IMG/VR virus record: IMGVR_UViG_3300020045_004928
Location: 1-60,285 of that record
DNA: 60,285 bases
Direction: 5' to 3' (one strand)
Origin: a virus
Taxonomy: Duplodnaviria; Caudoviricetes
Below, in pieces: positions 5,217-31,676 of this stretch. Made by a program: the position numbers and the translations under genes. The notes beneath the pieces were generated by a model. That model was not told the origin of the DNA. It made no database searches and saw only the letters and a list, made by a program, of their open reading frames with translations. Each line of letters opens with the position of its first letter. Positions within the stretch are counted from its first letter, which is position 1.

Positions 5217-8200
5217 ATGACACCCGCAGATGATTTAGAATTAATTCTCTTCGGAGAAGCGCCTACAAAACCAAAGACCGCAGCCGCGCCAGCCGTGGCC
5301 CAGCCACAAGATGAGCTGTCTGCGATCCTCTTTCCGTCAGAAAATCTCGTAAACGCACAGCCAACTTATGAGAACGCAAGGCCTTCTTCGCCCGGATTTA
5401 TGGGCGGCATTAAAGATGAAGTTCTAAATGTCAAAGATGATCTCGATGCGGGAACTAGAGAACTCGGAAACGCAGCGGTTTCAGCTGCTATGCTTTATGG
5501 GCAGATGGACCCTGTAGAAGCTGCCGATTTTATCACTTCCAATCGCCAAGCTGCCGATATGGCCAGATCCTCGCGCTCAGAATCTTTGCAGCGTGACATG
5601 GAAACAATTCAAAGCTCGGACGGATTTCTTGACGCAGCCAAAAACGTCATTACAAATCCACGCGCAGCTGCTCACCTTTCCATTGAAAACCTTCCTTATT
5701 CAGCTCCCGGCATGATGGCCGCAGCTGGCGGTGCCGCGACCGGTGCCGCTGCCGGTGCCGCTACTGGCCCAGCTGCTCCTGTTATGGCTCCAATCGGAGC
5801 TGTCACTGGCGCCGTTGCTGGTGGATTTGCCGGTCAGGTTCCAGTCGAAGTCGGCGCATGGGTTGATCAGGCCTTGCAAGAAAGAGGCGTAGATATATCG
5901 ACGCGAGAAGGTCGTATTGCGGCTTATAGCGATAGAGCCATGATGGACGAAATTCGTGGAGAAGCTGAACGTAAAGGTATCACGACAGCTGCCGTCGATT
6001 CTCTATGGAATATTTTTGCAGGTTCCAAATTATTCAAGTCGGCTGGAACAAGCTTTCCAAGCAGGGTTGTTGCTGGAGCAAAAGATACCGGCCTTCAAAT
6101 GGTTGGTGAATCTGCCAGTGAAGGCGCAGGACAGCTCGCAGCTTACAAAGGCGATACCAGCAAGATAAACACAACAGACATTGCGCTTGAAGGGCTTTTG
6201 TCTGCTCCACAAGCTATAGCTGAAACTGGCGTAGGTCTTATGGTTCGTAATCAGATCCAAGGATCAGCGCAACCTCCGGCCAATGGCCAAACCTCACAAG
6301 ATAATGCGGAAGCTGTGCAAACAGCTGATGCCATCCCTCCGGTAGCTACAGCTCCGGAGGTCAAAGTTCCTACCCGTGATGATCTCGCGGCTGCCATGCA
6401 GAACCCGGAGGCACCTCTTCAAACTTCAAGCCCTCAATCCAATGCTGCACAGACGCCCTCTCCGATTATCACCCCTGACGCGGCTACTCCAATAGTTGCG
6501 CCTACCCCACAGGGATTCGCTTACGGTCAGACCGTTGAGCAAGTTAATCGGTTCGGTGAAGTGGTCGAAGGTACCGTTCAGGGTGTTCAAAATACCGCTG
6601 ACGGGATATCTATCACAATCAAAGACCGTGACGGAAATGTGGGTACCATTTTTGACAGTGAAGGTCCAATCGAAATCAGGGCGAAATCTGCTCCGACTGG
6701 ACCGACCAGAAGTGATCTGGAAGCTGCCTTAAATGGGGAAAAACCGATCTCGCCTACCGCTCCGGTGCAAATGGAAATGGCTGCTGGGCCACCGCCGCAA
6801 ACAGCGGCCCAGACACCACCAATGCAGGAGCAGCCACTTTCGCTCCCTGAATTACAAAAAAGATTAGAAACAGTTAAGGCTGGGGCTAAATTTAAGGGTT
6901 GGGATAAGAATTCTCTGGCCATGCGCGATAACCTGCAAGGTCAAATAGACCTGTTACAGAGCGCCCAATTGCCTGTTACAGAGGTTGTTCAGCCTGTAGC
7001 AAAGCCTCCGACATTCAAAGAGCAGCTGCCGACCATGACGGAAGATCAGCTGGTCGAGATTTACCGTGGCAAAAACCGTCAAAAGCGCGAATTGGCCGCA
7101 GCTGAAATCAAAGCTCGTTTCCCGGAAAACAACTTTACTGGAGCGATAGATGTGCAAGATGCAGCCGGTCAGGTCAATACAGCGCCTACTGACGGTCAAA
7201 AAGAGGCCGGAAACTACAAAAAAGGCCATGTAAAGATCAACGGCATGGATATTGCCATTGAAAACCCGCAAGGAAGCATGCGATCCGGCAAGGATAAGGA
7301 CGGAAACGCATGGGAAGTGGCCATGCCAGCCCATTACGGCTATGTGAAGCGCACTGTCGGCGCTGATAATGAGAATATGGACGTTTATATCGGAAGTAAT
7401 ATAGACGCGCCGGAAGTTTACGTGGTCGACCAGGTGCATGCCGATACCCAGGATTTTGACGAACACAAAGCTATGATTGGCTTTAATTCCATTCAGGAAG
7501 CGGTCGACGCCTATTCCGGTGCCTTTTCCGATGGTCGTGGCGGTGAGCGCCATGGTGGCGTCACGGTAATGACCGTTCAGGAATTCAAAGACTGGCTGAA
7601 AGGCGACCAGACCAAGAAGCCTCTGGTTTATAAAAAGCCGGAAGCTCCTAAAAAAGATATCCCAAGCGAAGCAGAACCGCAGAAGGCGGCTCTTACCGGG
7701 GAAACTGAGCCACAGAACGCGGTTCAGACCCAAGACGATAAACCAAGCGTCGATCAGGAAGCCTCGCTCCAGAACCCATATTTTTCCAATTTTAAGGATG
7801 CGCAGGAACGCGCCTTCATGCTGGCGACCAAAAATCAGGATGAAATTGCCGCTTCGATCAATATGGCGCTGTCAATTGTGGATGATGCGGCCCAGCTTGA
7901 CGTCGAAATCGATCCTGCATTGAAGAGACAGGCCGATGTTTTGGCAAAAAGATACTTTGCATGGCTCGATAAAGACGCCTTTGCTTTCAAAACCGCCACT
8001 TCTGAAAACGCCGGGAAGGCTTTCATTGATTCTGCCAAGAAACTTAAAGCTTTGGCTGATAAAATGGATAAGAAAATTGACGACCGCGCCCGTGAAGAAA
8101 GTCAAATAGAACCTGAGAATAATTCTGATCTGAGCTCCTATCAACAGGATGAGGATAAAGTTATCCCGGATGAAGTTGCTGAAAAACCACAGGAAACCGA

Positions 8201-11200
8201 AGTTGCTTCCCGTGAAACGCCTGAAAATGTGGATAATTCAGCCCCAACTGTGGCCGATCAGCCACAGCCTGTTGCAGAAACATCACAGTATAAGCCAGAA
8301 AGTTCCCAAGAAACTGAAAATAATCCACAGGAAAACACACTGTCCAAGACCAAACAAATGGTCAAGGACTACGTTGAAGCCAAAAACGCCAATGGTTTGC
8401 GCGGCATCCTATCTAATCTGGATAACAAACAATCACGCGCATACTTCGCCGAATTAACGGGCATCAAGCTTCCCAAAACTGTCAAGGCCACTAATGAGGC
8501 GATTGATACCTTTGCTGGCATCACGACCGATCAGAGAGCCAAAATGGACGCTGATAAGGCTGATGCGGCAGATACAAAGAAGCAGGAGCGCGACGAGCTT
8601 TGGTGGGGAAATATCCTTTCTAAAATGCCGACAGATGGTGGCAGCAACGTCAAGGCATGGATAGATGGGCTTATTGCAGAAGGCTACAACCGCGTCGTTA
8701 GCCAGAAAAACGGAGCAACAACAAATTATGTTTTAGTGAATGAAACGGGCCGAGGTTACAAAATAAGCGGCTTAAAAGGTGGTCGCTCAGAGATATGGAA
8801 GTACGCTAAAGCCGTAACTGAACGCATGGCAAAAGGGCAGGAAGCCCCGTTCATTCCAAATATGCCAGCCGAAAAAGCATCTAGTTTTGAGCCGGAAGCT
8901 GCTAATAGCTCACCAGTTTCAGAAGAAGTTAAAAGTACAGACAATCCGGATAGTCCGGACAATTCTGCGCCGGAGCGCCGGAGCTTTGACCTTATACCTG
9001 ATGATGCAGAGAACCGATCTCCGCAAATTCAAAAGCTTGTCGATGGACGAAACGCACTTCGCAAATTTGCCAATGAGCTTTCAGATGAGGATTACGCTTA
9101 CCTCGCTAAGACTTTAAAATCAGAATATGGCGCGAATTTTCCGCAAGACGCGGCAACTTCAAACGAACCTGAGAAATCTCTCAAGATCTGGCAGGAAACT
9201 TTAGATGCCCACAAAAAACCAGCTGCGCCGAAAAAACCCGCAGCTGAAAAGCCAAAAACCCAAGAAGAACCGGCTGCCGACAAGGTTGCCGATTTTGGTG
9301 AGAAGATCCAAGGCGCGAAAAAAGATCTATGGACTGGCTACAAGGACACTTTGAAGGAAGAGCTTCCAGAAGATCTGGCACAGATTACCCTGGCTAAACA
9401 TTTCCCAGAGCCAAATTACGAGAACCTGATTGAGAACGGCGTTGAGATCCCGGCGCTTGCTGCGATCAAAGCCATGCGTGATCTCATCCCTGCGAAGCCT
9501 CGCGTATCATACAAGCTGAAAGATTGGGCTGCCGCAGTTAAATCGACACGCTTAATGGCCAACTCTTTGCTGACCGGCACTCTTAAATTCAGCGATCTAA
9601 CTCAAAAATTCGGTGAATCCAGAAGCCGCATCTTGCGTGACATGCCTGATAAAATTCAGCTTTACGTGGATCTGGGATATCCGGCTTTCACAAAAGCAAA
9701 AGAATACTCAATCCATCCTTCTGATGGAGCATACGAGAACGGCGTAAAAATCGACCGTCGCCAGTGGTTCGTGACCAAAGGCAACAGATACGGCGACAGA
9801 TACGAAACGTATGAGGATGCTTTAAAAGCTCTGCGTGATAAGCTATCAGCTGATGAAGGTCCAAAAGCCAAGCTTGTAAAGTTCGACATTTATCGCGTCA
9901 CATCAACCGGCGATATCGTCGTTGGTAAAAAGATTGCAGCTGGCAAATATGTCGATTTGCAAAAAGGCTTTAAGACTGGACGTGAAGCGCGTGAATATCT
10001 CAGTGAAAATTACGACGATCTGGTAAAGCGTCTTGAAGATAAGAAGAACCTGCCGCCAGAGCGCCGAAGCATAAACGATCCTCGCGTTGGTGAGGATTAC
10101 CGTCAGGGCGAAGATGTCACTCCTGAAATGTTTGCCAAAGAATTCGGATTCCGTGGCGTTCAGTTTGGTAACTACGTTGAGCAAAAACGTCGTGTCAAAG
10201 ATCTTAATAACGCCTTTGATGCTTTGCGTGATATGGCGACCGTTCTTGGAATTCCACCACGGGCTGTTTCTCTTGAAGGTACTCTGGGCCTTGCGTTTGG
10301 TGCGCGGGGATCTGGTGGGGTAAATCCGGCAGCTGCTCACTATGAGCGCGGTCATGTCGTTATCAATCTTACCAAAATGAACGGTGCAGGATCTCTCGGC
10401 CATGAGTGGTGGCATGCAATGGATCATAACTTCGGTAAGCGTCGTGAAGGTCCGGATTATTTGACAGCTGCTCCGCGTCAGAAAGAAAAGAATAAAGACG
10501 GCACGATTGCTGAGCCTACAATTCGTCCAGAAGTGGTTGAAGCTTTCGCTGGCGTTATGAAGGCCATCAAAGGATCAACTATGGTTAAGAGAGCCAAGGA
10601 AGCCGACAAAACACGCGGCAAGGATTACTGGTCCACCGATATCGAGATGTCGGCCCGTTCGTTTGAAAAATACCTGATCGATAAAGCCAAAGAGCGCGGA
10701 TATTCAAACGACTATCTATCGAACATCGTGCCTGAGAAAGCTTTCACCGATAAAGAAGGTAATGTCAGCGACGACTTCCAATATCCGACCACGAAGGACA
10801 TGGAAACAATTGGCCCTGCTTTCGACAAGCTGTTTGCAACTATCGAGAACAAAGAAACTGACAAAGGCGTGGCGCTGTATTCCGCTGCTCCGCTTAAATC
10901 CGCGTTGGTAAAAACCGTTGATAGCCTGAAACAGGCGAAGGGTTCCGGAGAACAGATGCTTGCGATCATTCGCAACACGCAAGGCGTCAAAGAAGAAGAA
11001 ATCGCATGGACAGGCCTGGACGACTTCTTGGCTGAAAAAAAGACCGTTACGAAGCAGGAAATCGCTGATTATCTGGCTGCAAATCAGGTGAATATTCGTG
11101 AAACAACTCTTAGCTCATCAGCGTTGCCTGATGGTTGGTACACAGAAGAAAATGACGAAGGATGGGTGGTTTTAGATGAATTCCATGATACCCGTGGCGA

Positions 11201-14200
11201 AGGACTAACTGAACAGGAGGCCATCGAGAATTCTGGTACTTTCTCAAATGAAAGTGCGGAAGGAAGTGGCGGTACTAAATTCTCCCAATACACTCTCCCC
11301 GGTGGCACGAATTACCGTGAGCTGCTTATCCAGATGCCGGTCGATAACGAAAAAACCTATACGGCGCGGATAACTCCTGGCATTGGTCCTCACGATGTTC
11401 TTGATGATATTCTGGGAGATATAAGCTCAGAAGGCATGGAAGATCTTGATTATGGTCGAGATTCCGACAGGCCAGAAATCCATATTACCAATTTCACTCA
11501 AACCCAGTTTGATAAGATCAAAGAGATTATCGCGCAATATCCTGATGCAAGAATGTACGATACTCACACTATTGGCGACAAAGAAACATTCAGTTCATCT
11601 CACTTTGATCAAAGCAATATCCTGACACATGTACGCCTGAACGACCGCACCGACGCTGATGGCAAAAAGGTTTTGTTCGTTGAGGAAATACAATCTGACT
11701 GGCATCAGGCTGGCCGGAAAAAGGGGTATAAAACCAAAAAAGAGATTCCTGACGGCTACACCCTTATAGACGTAAATGCCGAAGATAGAGCTGATGGTTT
11801 CCCTGTACCAGAAGACGCTTCTGAGAAATGGAGATTCAAAGGGCCAGATGTAAGTTCTCGCATATATAATAGCCGAGAAGAAGCCGTTAGTGCCATTTGG
11901 AAAGAAGCGGAAATGGGCGACGAAATCGGCGTTCCTGATGCCCCATTCAAAAAATCATGGCACGAAATGGCCTTCCGTCGCGTTGTGCAGATGGCGGCAG
12001 ATCAGGGCTATGACCGTGTAGCCTGGACGACTGGTGAGCAGCAAAATGAGCGTTATGACCTGAGCAAACACGTTGATAAAATAGAGGTTGATAAAGTTGG
12101 CGGTGAATATCGCGTTCTAGCATTTGACAAAGGCGGCACGAGAGTAATTAACGAAACTGCCAAAGATGCCGATGCTCTTTCTGATATCATAGGTAAAGAT
12201 GCAACTGAGAAAGCTATCGAGAAACTAGAAAACCAAAATCTTGCGATACTGCAAGGGGTTGATTTAAAAGTCGGTGGCACCGGCATGAAAGGCTTCTACG
12301 ACGATATCCTTGTCAAATACGCCAACAAGTTCGGGAAGAAGTTTGGCGCAAAAGTTTCTGACACCTCATTTAATGAAAATGTCGGAACCGGAAAGATGGT
12401 TTATAGCGGACCCGAAGCTACGCTTGAACAGGTAACAGAAGTATTTGATATCTCTAAAGGCCACAACAATGTTTTCAAGAGTCCGATAACCGGCGAGAAA
12501 ATGGAATATTCTCTGACGCGGGTTGCTGTTGAAAATCCAATGCGGAATATCACTCAGGCAATGGAAAATGGGAAAAGCTTCAAAGAGGCTTTTTCTCAGT
12601 ACGGAAGTGATGAGATAGCCAGAATTTTTGGTGGCACGGCAGAATGGGGCAAGAGAAACGAAACTTTTGAAATTCATTCCCTTGATATCACGCCAGAAAT
12701 GCGCCAAGCGGCCAAAGAAGGCTTGCCACTGTTCAGAATGGGCGGCGAGAAGATCGAGGTTGATCCGAAAGCAAAAGCACGGATCGAGGGTGAAATTAAC
12801 AAGCAGCTCAAGCAGCTGGGATATCCGCAAGCAGCTGTCCGTCTTGTCAATGACACAGGCGAAGTTGATGGCCTTATGGCTGGCGCACAGGGCGCTTATT
12901 ACAAAGGCCTGATATTCCTTTCCATGCAAGCTGAGAACGTCGTGAACACTCTGACGCATGAAGTCGTACACGATTTACGAGCAGCTGGAGCTTTCACGAA
13001 AGGCGAATGGAATTTGCTGGCCGAGAAGGCAAAAAAATGGCGCACTGAGTTCGATATCGATAGCCGGTATAAATCACAGAAGCTTACCGAAGAGCAGCTG
13101 ACGGAAGAAGCGATTGCAGACGGTATTGCCAATCACAACGATGCTGGCGGTCCTATCGGTCGTATTATCAAGCGCATTGAGCGTTTCATGCGCGGAATCC
13201 GTCAAGCCCTGACTGGCAAGCCGTTAGAATTCAAAACTGCCGAGGACATCATCGAAGCTGTACGCAGCGGCGAAATGACGAAACGTGCGAAGGACAAATA
13301 CGCCAAGGATAATGGGCCTATTTATGACGCTGCCCTGAATAAACCTGATAAGGTTCTGTATTCTCTCCCGCTTAACAAAAAGCAAGCCCTCAAAGAAGCC
13401 GACGACATGCTGATGTCGGTGCGCGGATATAACCAAGGATTCCGGGCAAGCTTGGGAAAAGTTTCGTCATACTTCTTACACCCGCACCAGATAGCGTCCC
13501 TGTATAAATCTTTTACGCCTGTTTACACGCAAGCGATCAAGATGATGCAGTTCAGGGATAAGCTGGTTCACGATCTGTCCGAAACACTGGATCTGTATAA
13601 CAAGATCGATGGCGTATCGAAAAAGAATATTGATGCAGTCATTGAAATTGGTCGTTTAAGCGGCAAGAACTTCAAGCCTACCAATGGCGAGATCGTTGTG
13701 AAGAATGAAGATATCGACACAGCGCATCACAGCAAAATGGGTGAGACAATCACGCTTTCAGGCATTGAGGTCGAGGCCTATGAAGGCGTCCGGAAAACCA
13801 TGGATAAGGCGCTTGATACCTACAAGCAAGTTATTCTGGAGGAATTCGGTTACTGGAAAGACGGCATAAAAACCAAAGAAGATCTATCAAAGGCTTTGGC
13901 AAAAGAAACAGATCCGGATGAGGCTTCCCGTAAGCAACAGGCTATAAAAATGCTTGACGATATTGATGCAGCCAAACGCAAGGGATATGTCCCGTTCAAG
14001 CGTTGGGGACAGGTCGGTATTTCTGTTCGTGAGAAGGATGGCGACAAAGAACTTAAAGTATTTGAGCGCGTCGAGGTTTCGAAGATCAAGAATTTCCGCA
14101 AAGAGAAAATCGCTGAAAACAAGATTGTTAAAGAGAAGCTTCTGGAGCTGAGAAATAAATATCCGGCCAGTGGTTACGATATCGATGTGTTTGAAGTGAA

Positions 14201-16127
14201 AGATTTCACAGATCTGCAATCGAAAATGGATCTTAACGAGCTTGATGTCTTGGCTGCCAGCTCCGATATGAGCGATAAAGATTACAGCAGCTTGCGCAGT
14301 ATGCTTTCTGATGCTCTAAAACGTCGCGGGTTCCGTCAGCATTTTTTCAAGGCGTCAGATGTTCCTGGCTACAGTGCAGACTTTGAACGTGCGCTTAATG
14401 ATTATGTTGTCAGTATCTCTGGCCACTTATCACGCCGTATGTTCAATGACAAACTCGATCAGGCAATCAAGGATATCGAGACAGCCGGTGAACCGACGCT
14501 GTTCGATTATGCTCAGAAATACGTGAAGTATATCAACGAGCCGACCGAGGAATTCGGTGCAGTTCGTCAGATGGCGTTTATCTGGTACCTAGCCGGGAAT
14601 ATTGCATCAGGCGTAACCAACGCCATGCAGCCAGCTATGGTAACGGCTCCTTGGTTTAAAGCTATGTTCAGCCATGCCGATATCGCCAAGCAGATGTCAC
14701 GGGCTTACAAAGATGCAGCTGTGATGATCACTCCGAAAGCCGGGATCGATGTGTTCAATCTCGATAAAGCTCCTGATGATATTCGTGATGCCCTGAAACT
14801 GGCTGATGAGACAGGCCTGTTCATTCCGTTGGCAACTAACGATGCAATGGCAATCTCACGCACAAACAAGGCTTACCTGCGCGGTCTGGATCGCAAGATC
14901 CGCAACGCTCAAGATGTTCTGGCTGTGACCTTCTCGGTACCGGAGCGCGTCAACAGGCTTGTGACATTCACTTCCGCTTACAGATTTGCAATCAAGCCTG
15001 AAAACAAAAAGAAGATTATGGCTTTCATTAACCGTGATCAGCTTGGCCGTCAGCAGCTCGAAGGTCTTGAAGGAAAAAACTTTGCAGCTGCTTTTGCCGA
15101 ATACACGGTTTACAGCACTCAGCTTCGTATGGGTAAAATGAACCGTCCGATATTGTCACGCGGTTTTGGTACCTTACCATTTCAGTTCCTATCATTCTCA
15201 ATGCAAGCTCTGGAGCTGATGTACCGATTGAAACAAATCCACGGAGCTAAATCAGGTCAGGCGCTTGGCTTCATGCTTTTCGCGGTCGTGGCAATGGCAG
15301 GATATCAAGGTTTTCCATTCGAAAAAGATATACAAAAACTATTTGAAGCGGCTTACAAGCGTTTGACAGGCGTTGATATGGACGTTGACAGTGAAATGCG
15401 CAAGCTGCTCTCTGAACACATTGGATCAACTGCCACTAATGCAATTATGAAAGGTATTCCTTATGCGCTTCTCAATGTTGATATGTCTGGGCGTCTTGGC
15501 TTCGGCAACATTGTCCCTGACGATCAAGCAGACCTGTATGGTGTCTGGTATAACATGCTGTTCGAAAACCCAGCGAAAGCAGCTGATAGTTTAAGCCGTG
15601 GCAATGTCGTCCAGGCGATTGCTGATATCTCGCCTACCTTCCTGAAAAACGTCTTAACGGCGCAGGAATGGCAAACGGATGGCGTAAGATCCGGGACCAC
15701 CGGCAAAGTCATTATCGAGAAAGATAGCCTTGAAAAAGAAGATATCTGGCTAAAGCGGTTTGGTTTCACCTCTGCCAGCGTAGCGCGTGAACGTGAGCGC
15801 ATTTATGCCGACCAGAGGGCTTCACATGCCGTCGATAACCTTAGAAACAACTATTACTCCGAGCTGACACGCGCCTACGCTATGCGCAGGAAAATGAGTA
15901 TCGAGGGCGATACAGAAGCGTCTGCCCTTTATCAGCAAAAGATTAAAGACATTATGGACGAAATACGCGAATATAATCAGGGCGCACCGCTTTTCAAACA
16001 GGTGTTGATCAGCGAAAAAACACTTAAACAGCGTCTTAAACAGGAGATTAAGGGAAGCGAAGCCTTCAAGCCTCGTAAACAAGCCAGACAAAATTCTAAG
16101 GAATTAGATAAAGCATACGGTAAATAA
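5217..16127 (+). CDS. Giant polyvalent internal virion protein (inorganic-pyrophosphatase-like, LPD5/LPD1-like, two HExxH motifs, PLxRFG-like C-terminal region)
   Basis: 3636 aa; GNYKKGH..IENP.GS.RSG..W...M..HYGY...T.GAD...DV (~7200-7600); DFGEKIQGAKKD (~9290); FGFRGVQFGNY/HEWWHAMD/YWS..EMSARSFE (~10140-10670); EEIQSDWHQ (~11680); HEVVH (~12960); YVPFKRWG (~13985). Confidence 0.8.
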   Translation: MTPADDLELILFGEAPTKPKTAAAPAVAQPQDELSAILFPSENLVNAQPTYENARPSSPGFMGGIKDEVLNVKDDLDAGTRELGNAAVSAAMLYGQMDPVEAADFITSNRQAADMARSSRSESLQRDMETIQSSDGFLDAAKNVITNPRAAAHLSIENLPYSAPGMMAAAGGAATGAAAGAATGPAAPVMAPIGAVTGAVAGGFAGQVPVEVGAWVDQALQERGVDISTREGRIAAYSDRAMMDEIRGEAERKGITTAAVDSLWNIFAGSKLFKSAGTSFPSRVVAGAKDTGLQMVGESASEGAGQLAAYKGDTSKINTTDIALEGLLSAPQAIAETGVGLMVRNQIQGSAQPPANGQTSQDNAEAVQTADAIPPVATAPEVKVPTRDDLAAAMQNPEAPLQTSSPQSNAAQTPSPIITPDAATPIVAPTPQGFAYGQTVEQVNRFGEVVEGTVQGVQNTADGISITIKDRDGNVGTIFDSEGPIEIRAKSAPTGPTRSDLEAALNGEKPISPTAPVQMEMAAGPPPQTAAQTPPMQEQPLSLPELQKRLETVKAGAKFKGWDKNSLAMRDNLQGQIDLLQSAQLPVTEVVQPVAKPPTFKEQLPTMTEDQLVEIYRGKNRQKRELAAAEIKARFPENNFTGAIDVQDAAGQVNTAPTDGQKEAGNYKKGHVKINGMDIAIENPQGSMRSGKDKDGNAWEVAMPAHYGYVKRTVGADNENMDVYIGSNIDAPEVYVVDQVHADTQDFDEHKAMIGFNSIQEAVDAYSGAFSDGRGGERHGGVTVMTVQEFKDWLKGDQTKKPLVYKKPEAPKKDIPSEAEPQKAALTGETEPQNAVQTQDDKPSVDQEASLQNPYFSNFKDAQERAFMLATKNQDEIAASINMALSIVDDAAQLDVEIDPALKRQADVLAKRYFAWLDKDAFAFKTATSENAGKAFIDSAKKLKALADKMDKKIDDRAREESQIEPENNSDLSSYQQDEDKVIPDEVAEKPQETEVASRETPENVDNSAPTVADQPQPVAETSQYKPESSQETENNPQENTLSKTKQMVKDYVEAKNANGLRGILSNLDNKQSRAYFAELTGIKLPKTVKATNEAIDTFAGITTDQRAKMDADKADAADTKKQERDELWWGNILSKMPTDGGSNVKAWIDGLIAEGYNRVVSQKNGATTNYVLVNETGRGYKISGLKGGRSEIWKYAKAVTERMAKGQEAPFIPNMPAEKASSFEPEAANSSPVSEEVKSTDNPDSPDNSAPERRSFDLIPDDAENRSPQIQKLVDGRNALRKFANELSDEDYAYLAKTLKSEYGANFPQDAATSNEPEKSLKIWQETLDAHKKPAAPKKPAAEKPKTQEEPAADKVADFGEKIQGAKKDLWTGYKDTLKEELPEDLAQITLAKHFPEPNYENLIENGVEIPALAAIKAMRDLIPAKPRVSYKLKDWAAAVKSTRLMANSLLTGTLKFSDLTQKFGESRSRILRDMPDKIQLYVDLGYPAFTKAKEYSIHPSDGAYENGVKIDRRQWFVTKGNRYGDRYETYEDALKALRDKLSADEGPKAKLVKFDIYRVTSTGDIVVGKKIAAGKYVDLQKGFKTGREAREYLSENYDDLVKRLEDKKNLPPERRSINDPRVGEDYRQGEDVTPEMFAKEFGFRGVQFGNYVEQKRRVKDLNNAFDALRDMATVLGIPPRAVSLEGTLGLAFGARGSGGVNPAAAHYERGHVVINLTKMNGAGSLGHEWWHAMDHNFGKRREGPDYLTAAPRQKEKNKDGTIAEPTIRPEVVEAFAGVMKAIKGSTMVKRAKEADKTRGKDYWSTDIEMSARSFEKYLIDKAKERGYSNDYLSNIVPEKAFTDKEGNVSDDFQYPTTKDMETIGPAFDKLFATIENKETDKGVALYSAAPLKSALVKTVDSLKQAKGSGEQMLAIIRNTQGVKEEEIAWTGLDDFLAEKKTVTKQEIADYLAANQVNIRETTLSSSALPDGWYTEENDEGWVVLDEFHDTRGEGLTEQEAIENSGTFSNESAEGSGGTKFSQYTLPGGTNYRELLIQMPVDNEKTYTARITPGIGPHDVLDDILGDISSEGMEDLDYGRDSDRPEIHITNFTQTQFDKIKEIIAQYPDARMYDTHTIGDKETFSSSHFDQSNILTHVRLNDRTDADGKKVLFVEEIQSDWHQAGRKKGYKTKKEIPDGYTLIDVNAEDRADGFPVPEDASEKWRFKGPDVSSRIYNSREEAVSAIWKEAEMGDEIGVPDAPFKKSWHEMAFRRVVQMAADQGYDRVAWTTGEQQNERYDLSKHVDKIEVDKVGGEYRVLAFDKGGTRVINETAKDADALSDIIGKDATEKAIEKLENQNLAILQGVDLKVGGTGMKGFYDDILVKYANKFGKKFGAKVSDTSFNENVGTGKMVYSGPEATLEQVTEVFDISKGHNNVFKSPITGEKMEYSLTRVAVENPMRNITQAMENGKSFKEAFSQYGSDEIARIFGGTAEWGKRNETFEIHSLDITPEMRQAAKEGLPLFRMGGEKIEVDPKAKARIEGEINKQLKQLGYPQAAVRLVNDTGEVDGLMAGAQGAYYKGLIFLSMQAENVVNTLTHEVVHDLRAAGAFTKGEWNLLAEKAKKWRTEFDIDSRYKSQKLTEEQLTEEAIADGIANHNDAGGPIGRIIKRIERFMRGIRQALTGKPLEFKTAEDIIEAVRSGEMTKRAKDKYAKDNGPIYDAALNKPDKVLYSLPLNKKQALKEADDMLMSVRGYNQGFRASLGKVSSYFLHPHQIASLYKSFTPVYTQAIKMMQFRDKLVHDLSETLDLYNKIDGVSKKNIDAVIEIGRLSGKNFKPTNGEIVVKNEDIDTAHHSKMGETITLSGIEVEAYEGVRKTMDKALDTYKQVILEEFGYWKDGIKTKEDLSKALAKETDPDEASRKQQAIKMLDDIDAAKRKGYVPFKRWGQVGISVREKDGDKELKVFERVEVSKIKNFRKEKIAENKIVKEKLLELRNKYPASGYDIDVFEVKDFTDLQSKMDLNELDVLAASSDMSDKDYSSLRSMLSDALKRRGFRQHFFKASDVPGYSADFERALNDYVVSISGHLSRRMFNDKLDQAIKDIETAGEPTLFDYAQKYVKYINEPTEEFGAVRQMAFIWYLAGNIASGVTNAMQPAMVTAPWFKAMFSHADIAKQMSRAYKDAAVMITPKAGIDVFNLDKAPDDIRDALKLADETGLFIPLATNDAMAISRTNKAYLRGLDRKIRNAQDVLAVTFSVPERVNRLVTFTSAYRFAIKPENKKKIMAFINRDQLGRQQLEGLEGKNFAAAFAEYTVYSTQLRMGKMNRPILSRGFGTLPFQFLSFSMQALELMYRLKQIHGAKSGQALGFMLFAVVAMAGYQGFPFEKDIQKLFEAAYKRLTGVDMDVDSEMRKLLSEHIGSTATNAIMKGIPYALLNVDMSGRLGFGNIVPDDQADLYGVWYNMLFENPAKAADSLSRGNVVQAIADISPTFLKNVLTAQEWQTDGVRSGTTGKVIIEKDSLEKEDIWLKRFGFTSASVARERERIYADQRASHAVDNLRNNYYSELTRAYAMRRKMSIEGDTEASALYQQKIKDIMDEIREYNQGAPLFKQVLISEKTLKQRLKQEIKGSEAFKPRKQARQNSKELDKAYGK

Positions 16128-29229: not shown

Positions 29230-30159
29230 ATGACTGCCGAATTACAAGAAAAACAAGAACCAGCAAAAAGCTACCCATCATCTGAGCTGGTTCAAAAAGT
29301 TATCGACAATATATCGCCTGATATTGCTGAGATCGACATCAATGGCGTTAAGGCTGCTGTCATTTTTGTGCCAAAGGGCATGGAAGTGAAAAGTGCGAAA
29401 ACAATTATCGATGAATACAAAATCAAGCCTGATCGCAGAACAGGAACCCATACTGTTCACCGCGTATCTTCTTTTATCGCACTTTTCAATCGCTTCAAGG
29501 CTCCTGAGTCTGTGGTGTTTGCGGAAGCATCTATCACTGACAACAGCATAAACGCTTCCCTCACGGGAATTCTTGATTTTCACCCAGCGACGGCTGTTAA
29601 TACGGAAGCTTCTAACGGTGGACACAAGCTGCTGTATAAATTCCCGATCTCCAGCATGTTTGCTAAATGGCTCAAGACAAATGGCGAAGTAATGGATCAG
29701 GAAGAATTTGCTGTTTTCTTGGAAGATCACATTGGCGAAATCTCTGTTGCCAGCTCTATCGAAAAAGAATCCATGGCAAATCTGTCAGCCAAGTTTGCAG
29801 AGCCTCTGGAAATCCTTTCTCTGGCGCGTGAACTGGCTATCTACTCGAATGAAACTATCGAGCAGAGCTACAAGCCTTCCAGCGGTGAACGCAAGATCAA
29901 GTTCAGTGTTCAGCACAAGGACTCCAATAACAATGAAATCTCTATTCCCGATTTCTTTGTTATCACGGTTCCAATGTTTGAAGCTGGAGAACAACAGCGC
30001 ATTATCGTCAAACTGCGCTACCGTAAATCTAGCGGTCGCATTGTCTGGTTCTACGAACTTTACCGCGTTGATAAAATGTTGGAAGCTGCTTTTGATCAGA
30101 CGATTACCGAAGTTGAGGCGGGAACAGAAGCCCCGCTATTCGTGGGTAAGTCTGCCTAA
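29230..30159 (+). CDS. DUF2303/YfdQ-like protein
   Basis: PDRRTGT..SF, ILDFH, MDQEEFAVFLED, IPDFF..PMFE, LRYR. Confidence 0.75.
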   Translation: MTAELQEKQEPAKSYPSSELVQKVIDNISPDIAEIDINGVKAAVIFVPKGMEVKSAKTIIDEYKIKPDRRTGTHTVHRVSSFIALFNRFKAPESVVFAEASITDNSINASLTGILDFHPATAVNTEASNGGHKLLYKFPISSMFAKWLKTNGEVMDQEEFAVFLEDHIGEISVASSIEKESMANLSAKFAEPLEILSLARELAIYSNETIEQSYKPSSGERKIKFSVQHKDSNNNEISIPDFFVITVPMFEAGEQQRIIVKLRYRKSSGRIVWFYELYRVDKMLEAAFDQTITEVEAGTEAPLFVGKSA

Positions 30160-30193: not shown

Positions 30194-30379
30194 ATGAATA
30201 ACGAACAAGACAAGCCAGCAGATGAAGCTCCAGCAACGGAATCCTCCGAAGCATCAACAGAGACAGCTGCGACAGAAACCCAACCACCAGTTGATAATGA
30301 TTACGTTGAAGAAGGCGCGACAAAATTTACTGATGAAGAAGTAGATCTTAACAAACCACAAGATCAAGCCTCCTCATAA
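30194..30379 (+). CDS. Small acidic, probably disordered peptide (61 aa)
   Basis: Strong RBS gaaaggagatatacATG; E/D/T/A-rich. Confidence 0.65.
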   Translation: MNNEQDKPADEAPATESSEASTETAATETQPPVDNDYVEEGATKFTDEEVDLNKPQDQASS

Positions 30380-30385
30380 GGCGGT

Positions 30386-30431
30386 CGTTTCTTTGAAATC
30401 CCGGTTCAAGCCGACCGGGATTTTTATGAAC
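30386..30431 (+). terminator. Hairpin module copy 1 (terminator or processing stem)
   Basis: cgtttctttga-AATCCCGGT..ACCGGGATT-tttatgaac. Confidence 0.6.
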
Positions 30432-30905
30432 CGAAAGGATCACCTACTTTCTCCCCCCAGAAAGGCTCCGGCTGGCATGGTGTCAGCCGGGGTTCTGGGA
30501 GAATAAAATACCCAAGCGAAAGGGAGGCGTCGATCCAGTTAAGTTATCCGACATAAGCAATAAGTCGGTGAAGATATCTGGGGAGCTGAACGAGTAGGGC
30601 TGTGGAGCCGTTACCACAGGGGGAACGCCACCTCATCTCAGGCGTGACGACCGGAGGATCTCTGGTTAGCTGGTGAGAGGACCAGCGCCTTTCTTTGTAT
30701 GCTGTGTGTAGTGGGTTTGAGGTAGTTCAGGATTGCGCGAAAGCCTGACCGGAATGGGTGTAAGTCCCTTGGCCTCCAACCAATGCCCAGCGGTGCGGTC
30801 TGGTCCGAATGAAGCCATTGGCTCGGATGATCTAAGACGCCTCGCACAGCAGACATGGACAGGTTCGGAACACCGGAAACGGAAAGAATTGGCCTATCCT
30901 TACTG
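30432..30905 (+). ncRNA. Putative large structured non-coding RNA, family unknown
   Basis: No credible ORF; dense hairpins, GNRA and T-loop motifs; long-range stems GAGGCGTC/GACGCCTC and TGCTGTGTG/CGCACAGCA. Confidence 0.55.
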
Positions 30906-30944
30906 CGTAACTGAGTTTTAACCCAAGCCTCACAGGAGACACCT

Positions 30945-31040
30945 ATGGCCGCTACAGTAAAAAAAGCAGTTAAAAAAACTGCAACTAAAAAACCAGCAAC
31001 AAAAAAGGCTCCGGCCAAGAAAGTTGCCGCTAAGAAATAA
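30945..31040 (+). CDS. Histone H1-like Lys/Ala-rich peptide (31 aa, not in ORF track)
   Basis: RBS caggagacacctATG; MAATVKKAVKKTATKKPATKKAPAKKVAAKK*. Confidence 0.75.
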   Translation: MAATVKKAVKKTATKKPATKKAPAKKVAAKK

Positions 31041-31045
31041 GCGCC

Positions 31046-31096
31046 CGTTTTTTGAAGTCCCCGTCTAATCTATAAGCGGCGGGGATTTTTATGAAC
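31046..31096 (+). terminator. Hairpin module copy 2
   Basis: cgttttttga-AGTCCCCGTC..GGCGGGGATT-tttatgaac; flanks nearly identical to copy 1. Confidence 0.6.
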
Positions 31097-31213
31097 AGGT
31101 GGCGGAATAGTTAGACGCTGAAAGTCGAAAGGCAAAGCTGGACAACCTAATGGCAAAAAACATTAGGATTGGAGGCCCAGCGTAATACGGGGTTAGAATC
31201 CCCGTCCTGTTCA
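31093..31213 (+). ncRNA. tRNA-like RNA with Leu/Ser-type D arm and enlarged central domain
   Basis: Acceptor GAACAGG/CCTGTTC; D arm GCG-GAATAGTTAGA-CGC; T arm ACGGGG-TTAGAAT-CCCCGT; 68-nt branched insert instead of a normal anticodon arm. Confidence 0.7.
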
Positions 31214-31243
31214 GCACTGAAACTTTAACGAAGGACTACAACT

Positions 31244-31480
31244 ATGATCTGTCTAGTAAACGGCCCAGAAGGCCAACGTCTGATAAAAGCGAAGAGTAAC
31301 CAAGCGGCAATCGATTTTGTCGTTGCTGAACGCTTCACCAGCAAAGCTGTAAATTCGGATGAGCTTTATGAGCTTACGACGAAGAGCGGCCTGAAAGTCG
31401 AAGAAGCTCCTGAAAAGATCATCCAAGGTATCGGATCTGTTCAAGCGGCTGTCGAATCTACAGGAGGCGCTAATGGCTAA
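31244..31480 (+). CDS. Phage hypothetical protein
   Basis: RBS gaagga; RLIKAKSNQAAI..DELYEL..GLKVEEA. Confidence 0.65.
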   Translation: MICLVNGPEGQRLIKAKSNQAAIDFVVAERFTSKAVNSDELYELTTKSGLKVEEAPEKIIQGIGSVQAAVESTGGANG

Positions 31481-31676
31481 AGGCAAAGTAAAATGGTTTA
31501 ACACCCAAAAAGGTTTTGGATTCATTCAGCCCGACGATGGCGGCAAAGATGTGTTTGTTCATATCTCAGCCGTTGAAAGATCCGGTCTGCGCGGTCTGAA
31601 TGAAAACCAAGTCGTTGAATACGAACTACAAACTGAAAAAGGCAAAACAGCTGCCGTCAGTTTGAAAGTTGCTTGA
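31473..31676 (+). CDS. cspA: Cold-shock protein (RNA chaperone)
   Basis: GKVKWFN..KGFGFIQPDDGGKDVFVHISAV (RNP1/RNP2); RBS aggagg. Confidence 0.95.
   Translation: MAKGKVKWFNTQKGFGFIQPDDGGKDVFVHISAVERSGLRGLNENQVVEYELQTEKGKTAAVSLKVA

Follow-up and report, generated by a model that had tools for sequence, protein, structure and literature searches.

A probable conserved structured RNA element with a terminator-like hairpin in two distantly related phages

RESULTS

Genome and gene neighborhood of the structured stretch

The window analyzed here, meaning the whole stretch of 60,285 bp that makes up one IMG/VR virus record, is a complete phage genome with direct terminal repeats, and its gene content includes a terminase, a portal, a major head protein, and a DarB-like virion protein of 3,636 aa. 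The ORF of the last (5217–16127, + strand) matches DarB-like antirestriction and large virion-protein PHROGs, and on the basis of these matches it is not an N4-type virion RNA polymerase. At 30432–30905 lies a stretch which a preliminary description had presented as an ORF-free, densely structured RNA with crossing long-range helices. This stretch sits within a block of + strand genes, with the flanking genes also on the + strand, and is surrounded by replication and recombination genes (DUF1376, methylase, RecA-like, and PDDEXK genes).

Upstream, a DUF2303 gene (29230–30159, +), preceded in the block by the DUF1376 and methylase genes, is followed by the gene of a 61-aa acidic protein (30194–30379, +). 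This unit is closed by T1, an intrinsic-terminator-like hairpin read from the sequence (30396–30425, +) that consists of a GC stem and then five T, and the structured stretch begins immediately after it. The first ORF downstream of the RNA lies behind an AGGAG site and encodes a Lys/Ala-rich peptide of 31 aa (30945–31040, +), nearly all of it Lys, Ala, Thr, Pro, and Val (MAATVKKAVKK...), followed by a second terminator hairpin at about 31054–31090 (+). Further on, a 78-aa gene overlaps a cold-shock-domain gene (31244–31676, +). The acidic, lysine-rich, and 78-aa proteins had no Pfam or PHROGs match, and for a structural model of the 78-aa protein (mean pLDDT 66, two-sequence alignment) no PDB entry matched at an E below 0.8. 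Pseudomonadota predominate among the nearest Atlas clusters of the cold-shock-domain protein, which is only a hint at a Pseudomonadota host. The preliminary description called a gap of this length rare in so tightly packed a genome; once a minus-strand ORF at 30638–31018, which is not conserved, is set aside, 30380–30944 is the longest non-coding stretch, and the remaining gaps are of 311 bases or less.

Helices, coding potential, and folding energy

Every helix named in the preliminary description was found in the + strand sequence where it had been placed. These are the 5′ hairpin, whose stem CTCCGGCTGGCA (30466)/TGTCAGCCGGGG (30481) is extended by CCCAGAA (30456)/TTCTGGG (30493); the helices CCGAC (30548)/GTCGG (30564), CTGTGG (30600)/CCACAG (30614), ACCGGAG (30650)/CTCTGGT (30660), TCAGG (30727)/CCTGA (30744), and TCCGA (30804)/TCGGA (30823); the hairpin CCG-GAAA-CGG (30873); and the two long-range helices GAGGCGTC (30524)/GACGCCTC (30836) and TGCTGTGTG (30700)/CGCACAGCA (30843), the latter with one G-U pair. 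The stretch is also ORF-free in the sense that no frame is conserved, as comparison of its six ORFs (30–126 aa) with the homologous region of a related phage, G001, gave a best E of 0.23, against 5e−15 for the neighboring 78-aa gene used as a control.

Dense structure was borne out in part. The + strand folds with an MFE of −179.8 kcal/mol (z −2.21, 3 of 100 shuffles as good), a modest signal, and the − strand with z −0.74. The segment 30499–30854 alone reaches only z −0.93, with 15 of 100 shuffles folding as well, so that much of the folding signal is that of the 20-bp 5′ hairpin. The helices are present, the stretch is non-coding by the comparison with G001, and the fold as a whole goes only partly beyond chance. 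The pseudoknot-like crossing of the two long-range helices was not supported. Perfect 8-mers at least 100 nt apart number two, where 1.12 would be expected, and two or more such pairs also occur in 85 of 300 dinucleotide shuffles. For the helix 30524–30531/30836–30843, G001 offers no counterpart at that position and only a 6-bp match elsewhere, competing with an 11-bp local hairpin, and at the place of the second crossing helix G001 carries only a hairpin of unrelated sequence.

That the RNA fits no known family was upheld by Rfam 15, which gave no match at the gathering score across the window and nothing inside 30432–30905 even at E up to 10; the Rfam classes without a match include GOLLD, ROOL, RNase P, tmRNA, group I/II introns, riboswitches, T-box, 6S, and Csr/Rsm RNAs. 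In the G001 homolog, Rfam 15 returned only miRNA and lncRNA noise of 14–22 bits against cut-offs of 66–90. A role as a CsrA/RsmA sponge was considered separately and rejected, with 16 GGA in the RNA of the window against 11.1 ± 2.8 in shuffles (123 of 2,000 reach 16) and 12 against 10.6 in G001 (708 of 2,000).

A homolog located by gene order

One homolog was located by gene order, in the IMG/VR record G001, a genome of 60,043 bp that also has terminal repeats. Between G001 and the window, the terminases are 63% identical, the DUF2303 proteins 43%, and the 78-aa proteins 51%. The order in G001 is DUF2303, acidic protein, terminator hairpin, RNA, 78-aa gene, and cold-shock-domain gene, with a hairpin and T-run at the place matching T1 and with the 78-aa/cold-shock-domain pair directly following an RNA region of ~420 nt that has no conserved ORF; the 31-aa lysine-rich ORF is not present in G001. 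Four collinear blocks are common to both phages (ATACCCnAGCGAAAnGGAnGCGTnGATC, GATAnCnGGGGAGnnGAnnGAGTAGG, AGGCGTGAC, and GAGAGGnCCnnCGCCTTTCTT), the best block match being that of block A (blastn E 4.6e−4). Blocks of 19–28 bases differ between the phages at only 3–4 places, and nucleotide identity in the core is 67–76% over ungapped columns against 63–68% in the flanking genes, whose proteins are only 42–51% identical. Because unconstrained DNA should no longer align at such a flanking-protein identity, the stretch appears to be under selection.

Architecture of the conserved core

The conserved core (30508–30695, +) comprises four sequence blocks together with hairpins H2, H3, H4, H5, and H6 and is followed by a variable H7. 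Ahead of it, the fold places the long 5′ hairpin of ~20 bp (30449–30503, +), which is not in G001 and is kept in a core-less wastewater relative. The CCTAC at 30443–30447 (+), invariant in both phages and an MFE candidate for pairing with GTAGG at 30594–30598, is perhaps also part of the core. The leader sequence GATCACCT (30438–30445, +), before CCTAC, may resemble the anti-Shine-Dalgarno end of 16S rRNA; its counterpart in G001 is GATTACCT (locus L032, 3313–3320).

Block A, ATACCCnAGCGAAAnGGAnGCGTnGATC (30508–30535, +), is identical to G001 at 24 of 28 bases and leads into H2 (30535–30581, +), an irregular hairpin with an outer CCAG/CTGG, an inner CCGAC/GTCGG, and purine-rich internal loops. 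All 22 cells of its 11 pairs are paired, and three of the pairs are changed on both sides. Block B, GGGGAGnnGAnnGAGTAGG (30580–30598, +), was defined by alignment with G001 and precedes H3 (CTGTGG/CCACAG, 30600–30619, +), in place of which G001 has a longer branched insert. The five pairs of H4 (30623–30648, +; ACGCC 30625–30629/GGCGT 30641–30645) do not vary, and the two strands that contain the stem, GAACGCC and AGGCGTGAC (block C), are themselves invariant. H5 (30650–30666, +), the hairpin ACCGGAG/CTCTGGT seen by alignment and by RNAalifold, has seven pairs, of which two are changed on both sides, two on one side, and one is broken in G001. H6 (30669–30695, +), GCTGGT-GAGAGG-ACCAGC followed by the invariant GCCTTTCTT, has six pairs, two of them changed on both sides, and is terminator-like in both phages. 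Beyond the core, TGCTGTGTG/CGCACAGCA would close a branched domain of ~134 nt in the predicted fold (H7 domain, 30700–30851, +), whose counterpart in G001 is a 12-bp hairpin with an unrelated stem sequence and a similar loop start. H3 and H7 are in this way hairpins at equal places in both phages with unrelated stem sequences. The 3′ tail (30855–30944, +) holds small hairpins, among them CCG-GAAA-CGG, as well as the site for ribosome binding ahead of the next ORF, and in the relatives it stays together with that ORF.

Two further features of the conserved sequence were observed. The purine blocks GGGAGG, GGGGAG, and GAGAGG, all conserved, resemble ribosome-binding sites by eye. RNAalifold also returned a lone compensatory pair (30522 and 30591, columns 15/85 of alignment A5), G-C in the window and C-G in G001, which may hint at a contact between blocks A and B.

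Taken together, H2, H4, H5, and H6 count 29 pairs with 57 of 58 cells paired. The covariation looked for in a homolog was found, within the limits of two sequences: the four hairpins are kept in G001, seven of the 29 pairs have changed on both sides, and pairing is lost in only one of the 12 changed pairs. For H4, H5, and H6 alone, the figures are 18 pairs, 35 of 36 cells paired, four pairs changed on both sides, three on one side, and one broken. These counts come from plain MAFFT alignments of two sequences, with helices chosen after the folds had been viewed. When the 3′ partners were moved by 1–3 columns as a control, 18–54% of cells were paired, with 0–1 two-sided changes, and RNAalifold recovers all four hairpins unaided. 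A shuffle control, again on two sequences only, reached the observed covariation in 73 of 500 cases (A5) and 32 of 500 (A6). The + strand is taken as the working strand because four G-U cells on it would be A-C on the opposite strand and because G exceeds C in both RNAs (0.31 vs 0.24 in the window, 0.32 vs 0.20 in G001); the flanking genes lie on this strand too. By folding energy, the G001 RNA scores equally on both strands (z −4.09 on + and −4.15 on −).

A terminator-like hairpin and its alternative fold

H6 and its tail GCCTTTCTT were flagged as terminator-like by a simple scan in both the window and G001; the U tract, which a C interrupts, begins three bases (GCC) past the stem. An alternative fold can be drawn in which the 5′ strand of H5 pairs with the 5′ strand of H6 and the H6 loop GAGAGG pairs with CCTTTC, both of these motifs being invariant, and this fold excludes the H6 hairpin. 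All 32 of its 32 cells are pairable, and four of the five new pairs vary and stay paired, a result equaled by 242 of 500 shuffles. The energies of the H6 fold and the alternative are −20.3 vs −16.2 kcal/mol in the window and −22.4 vs −22.2 kcal/mol in G001, a gap of 4.1 and 0.2 kcal/mol, respectively. In the window, block A pairs well with CCTTTC; in G001, as read by eye, this pairing has three mismatches.

In both phages, the RNA lies after T1 and upstream of a + strand ORF, which is a leader position. Between H6 and the next ORF stand 130–210 nt of further structured RNA, and the next ORF is not the same in the window and in G001. H7 is not followed by a terminator, and the position of the RNA would therefore have it co-transcribed with the ORFs. 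A promoter scan gave two promoter-like sites in the window against 1.4 expected and none in G001. A motif upstream of genes, TTAACCCnA, was also considered and dismissed, with three matches against 1.27 expected.

Search for further members

Searches by blastn against 50,697 phage records, E. coli genomes, and plasmids found no homolog, and a blastn search of five related viral records found nothing at the right place. Since blastn also missed the true homolog in G001, these blanks are weak evidence. Patterns of three blocks, searched in IMG/VR, matched G001 only, as did an alignment of the 78-aa protein. A search with a DUF2303 alignment yielded 42 loci in metagenome contigs and 44 in IMG/VR, and two covariance models of the RNA, R1 and R2, were run over 50 sources and 43 of the 44 IMG/VR loci, the 44th being G001. 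The window scored 110 and 89 bits and G001 108 and 123 bits, and the next best score was 14 bits. Because the models match only the window and G001 among the DUF2303 loci, the RNA does not accompany DUF2303 in general; in the closest DUF2303 relatives (L036 and L040), the genes that follow are ordinary ones.

The two models found nothing in the five related viral records, and R2 gave four matches of 19–22 bits in 151 sampled Pseudomonadota genomes, which were taken as noise. A single match in a scan of a genome-contig collection was rejected as chance, the hairpin being missing and the genome being without block A. The papers searched on DUF2303 and on surveys of phage structured RNAs, supplementary tables aside, showed nothing on the present element. 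The element is rare, with no third full member among the collections searched, and it is a candidate new family outside Rfam with two members.

Modularity of the locus and a tRNA-shaped neighbor

Relatives of the window were found in one wastewater run, and no RNA run was listed as containing the stretch. A contig of 1,240 nt is ~90% identical to the window over 30855–31276 and also holds 30447–30498, the 5′ hairpin, whose retention is read from this single contig. It joins 30498 to 30855, with a 215-letter loose end before 30447, and by arithmetic (1240 − 901 − 52 − 215) ~72 letters replace the 356 bases of 30499–30854. A second contig is 97.5% identical over 30857–31057, preceded by 231 unalignable letters. 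These contigs delimit an exchangeable module (30499–30854, +) holding blocks A–D and H7, which two distant phages share and closer relatives have replaced. They also bear on the lysine-rich ORF, which does not need the core because the closer relative keeps this ORF and its leader without it. In a second run, a 168-nt contig matches 30617–30686 at about 81% and may be a third, diverged copy.

Two different contigs lose their match at almost the same base (30855 and 30857) and match well downstream; on this comparison, 30855–30857 is a recurrent mosaic junction. In G001, a short similar sequence, TGGACgGG, stands right after its H7 hairpin.

The preliminary description noted that large phage ncRNAs such as GOLLD and ROOL often lie next to tRNAs; here, ARAGORN calls no tRNA or tmRNA gene in the 60,285 bases. 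What the fold does predict is a tRNA-shaped RNA at 31092–31213 (+). Its acceptor-like stem has 7–8 bp (GAACAGG/CCTGTTC), one short arm is D-like, another arm is T-like (GGGG-TTAGAAT-CCCC), and the place of the anticodon arm is taken by a branched arm of ~65 nt. Its MFE is −46.3 kcal/mol (z −4.76), and none of 200 shuffles folds as well. It is not called by ARAGORN, its sole Rfam match is a weak one to a tRNA-like family (E 4.7), and nothing in IMG/VR matches its T-arm pattern exactly. It is not present in G001; one wastewater contig keeps it at ~90%, and another has 135 other letters there.

A 13-mer, GGGATTTTTATGA, occurs exactly twice in the window (30417–30429 and 31082–31094, +). It consists of the end of a terminator hairpin plus TATGA, each copy standing directly before a structured RNA, and at the matching place G001 carries GGGGAAGTTTATGA. 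The 13-mer may be a processing or start signal.

DISCUSSION

A selected RNA element and a possible switch

From the comparison of the two phages, the stretch is quite probably a selected, conserved, structured RNA element. What survives of the preliminary interpretation is a conserved structured RNA on the + strand; the crossing helices and the link to GOLLD and ROOL are not supported.

For its function, we tentatively favor a cis-acting switch, in which a new module of structured RNA would belong to a 5′ leader whose terminator can be switched. By its position, the RNA would be the 5′ part of a transcription unit that begins past the terminator and continues into small genes whose products probably bind nucleic acids, namely, the lysine-rich peptide in the window and the 78-aa/cold-shock-domain pair in G001. 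Blocks A and B with H2–H4 would serve as the sensing part, and the core would end at the terminator-like H6 and its U-rich tract, which the alternative fold would replace. The sensed signal, possibly the downstream nucleic-acid-binding product (feedback) or temperature, which is a guess, would decide the fold and thereby the amount of transcription continuing into H7 and the ORFs. Several observations weigh against the switch. Only two sequences are available, the shuffle controls are weak, and the helices were picked after the folds had been seen; the core alone folds no better than shuffles, and the G001 RNA folds alike on both strands. Neither phage has a convincing promoter, the U tract is weak and separated from the stem by GCC, and 130–210 nt of structure stand before an ORF that differs between the phages. 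A closer relative, moreover, keeps the lysine-rich ORF without the core.

Alternative explanations

A less probable yet serious alternative is a stand-alone structured RNA, trans-acting or a scaffold, that is cut from a longer transcript or ends at H6, an accessory “RNA moron” gained and lost by phages. The large size and many helices of the RNA suit this explanation, as do the terminator-like hairpins that flank it and the change of downstream ORF between phages. The swapping out of the module 30499–30854 in closer relatives, with both flanks staying, and the presence of a second structured, tRNA-shaped RNA 190 nt downstream are explained by it as well as, or better than, by a switch. Against it, no promoter of its own was recognized, no terminator follows H7, the RNA belongs to no known family, and the conserved alternative pairing at H6 suits a switch better than a static scaffold.

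We consider rather unlikely a new class of large sensing RNA, an “RNA moron” that phages would exchange as a cassette and whose conserved blocks and irregular H2 would bind a protein or small molecule and flip the terminator. The flipped terminator would gate transcription into genes for RNA/DNA chaperones, e.g., the cold-shock-domain protein, and the junction near 30855 would be the site of cassette swapping.

We also find it improbable that the stretch is a functionless leftover or spacer whose similarity reflects shared descent and chance hairpins in G-rich DNA. There are only two members, the MFE z of the core is not significant, the shuffle controls are weak, and a close relative does without the core, all of which speak for this reading. 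Neutral DNA, however, should not align where flanking proteins are 42–51% identical, yet the blocks differ at only a few places, and the changed pairs remain paired with a single exception. Still less credit is given to an element that acts as DNA, which could be a replication origin, a site of recombination or mosaic joining, or a set of single-stranded DNA hairpins, with the blocks as protein-binding sites. The surrounding replication/recombination genes and the mosaic junction at 30855–30857 fit this explanation, but stems that change with pairing kept and G-U pairs on the + strand only speak for RNA, and the stretch is not AT-rich and shows no repeated binding motifs by eye. Small proteins encoded by the ORFs of 30–126 aa on both strands are very improbable, as none is conserved in G001 and the conserved blocks alternate with covarying stems.

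Comparison with known systems

The mRNAs of cold-shock proteins carry a long structured 5′ leader, of which the cspA thermosensor is an example. The RNA of G001 resembles this arrangement in that the operon immediately after it has a cold-shock-domain gene as its last member; it differs in having no Rfam match, and in the window an ORF, a terminator, and the tRNA-shaped RNA intervene. Transcription-attenuation leaders and riboswitches use a switch between terminator and antiterminator, e.g., in T-box leaders, and by analogy the present element would work most like such a leader. The likeness lies in its position at the head of a unit, on the strand that carries the ORFs, in a conserved structure of ~190–250 nt followed by a terminator-like hairpin and U-rich tract, and in a putative mutually exclusive pairing that could form in both phages. 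Unlike the known attenuator leaders, it has no Rfam match, is followed by 130–210 nt of structure past the putative terminator, and would not regulate the same gene in the two phages.

GOLLD and ROOL are reported to be large ornate RNAs often found in phages and prophages (PMC12286853). The present RNA shares with them its size, its lack of ORFs, its phage carrier, its many helices, and a tRNA-shaped element close by; it differs in a far shorter conserved core and in having no tRNA gene called by ARAGORN. The link to these RNAs is not supported, there being no Rfam 15 match at E up to 10 in either phage and no tRNA gene. A survey of viral structured RNAs in IMG/VR kept only motifs matching at least three regions (PMC10690425). 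Its candidates are objects of the same kind from the same source collection, and the present motif, with two regions found against the at least three required, differs from them in this respect.

A role is known for only a few structured phage RNAs, and abundant families supply most of the candidates. The element presented here is rare in the collections searched and long, heads a unit of small, likely nucleic-acid-binding proteins, and acts as an exchangeable module. If the terminator switch is true, it would be a new regulatory RNA, and if it is a free RNA, it would add to the short list of large function-less phage RNAs.
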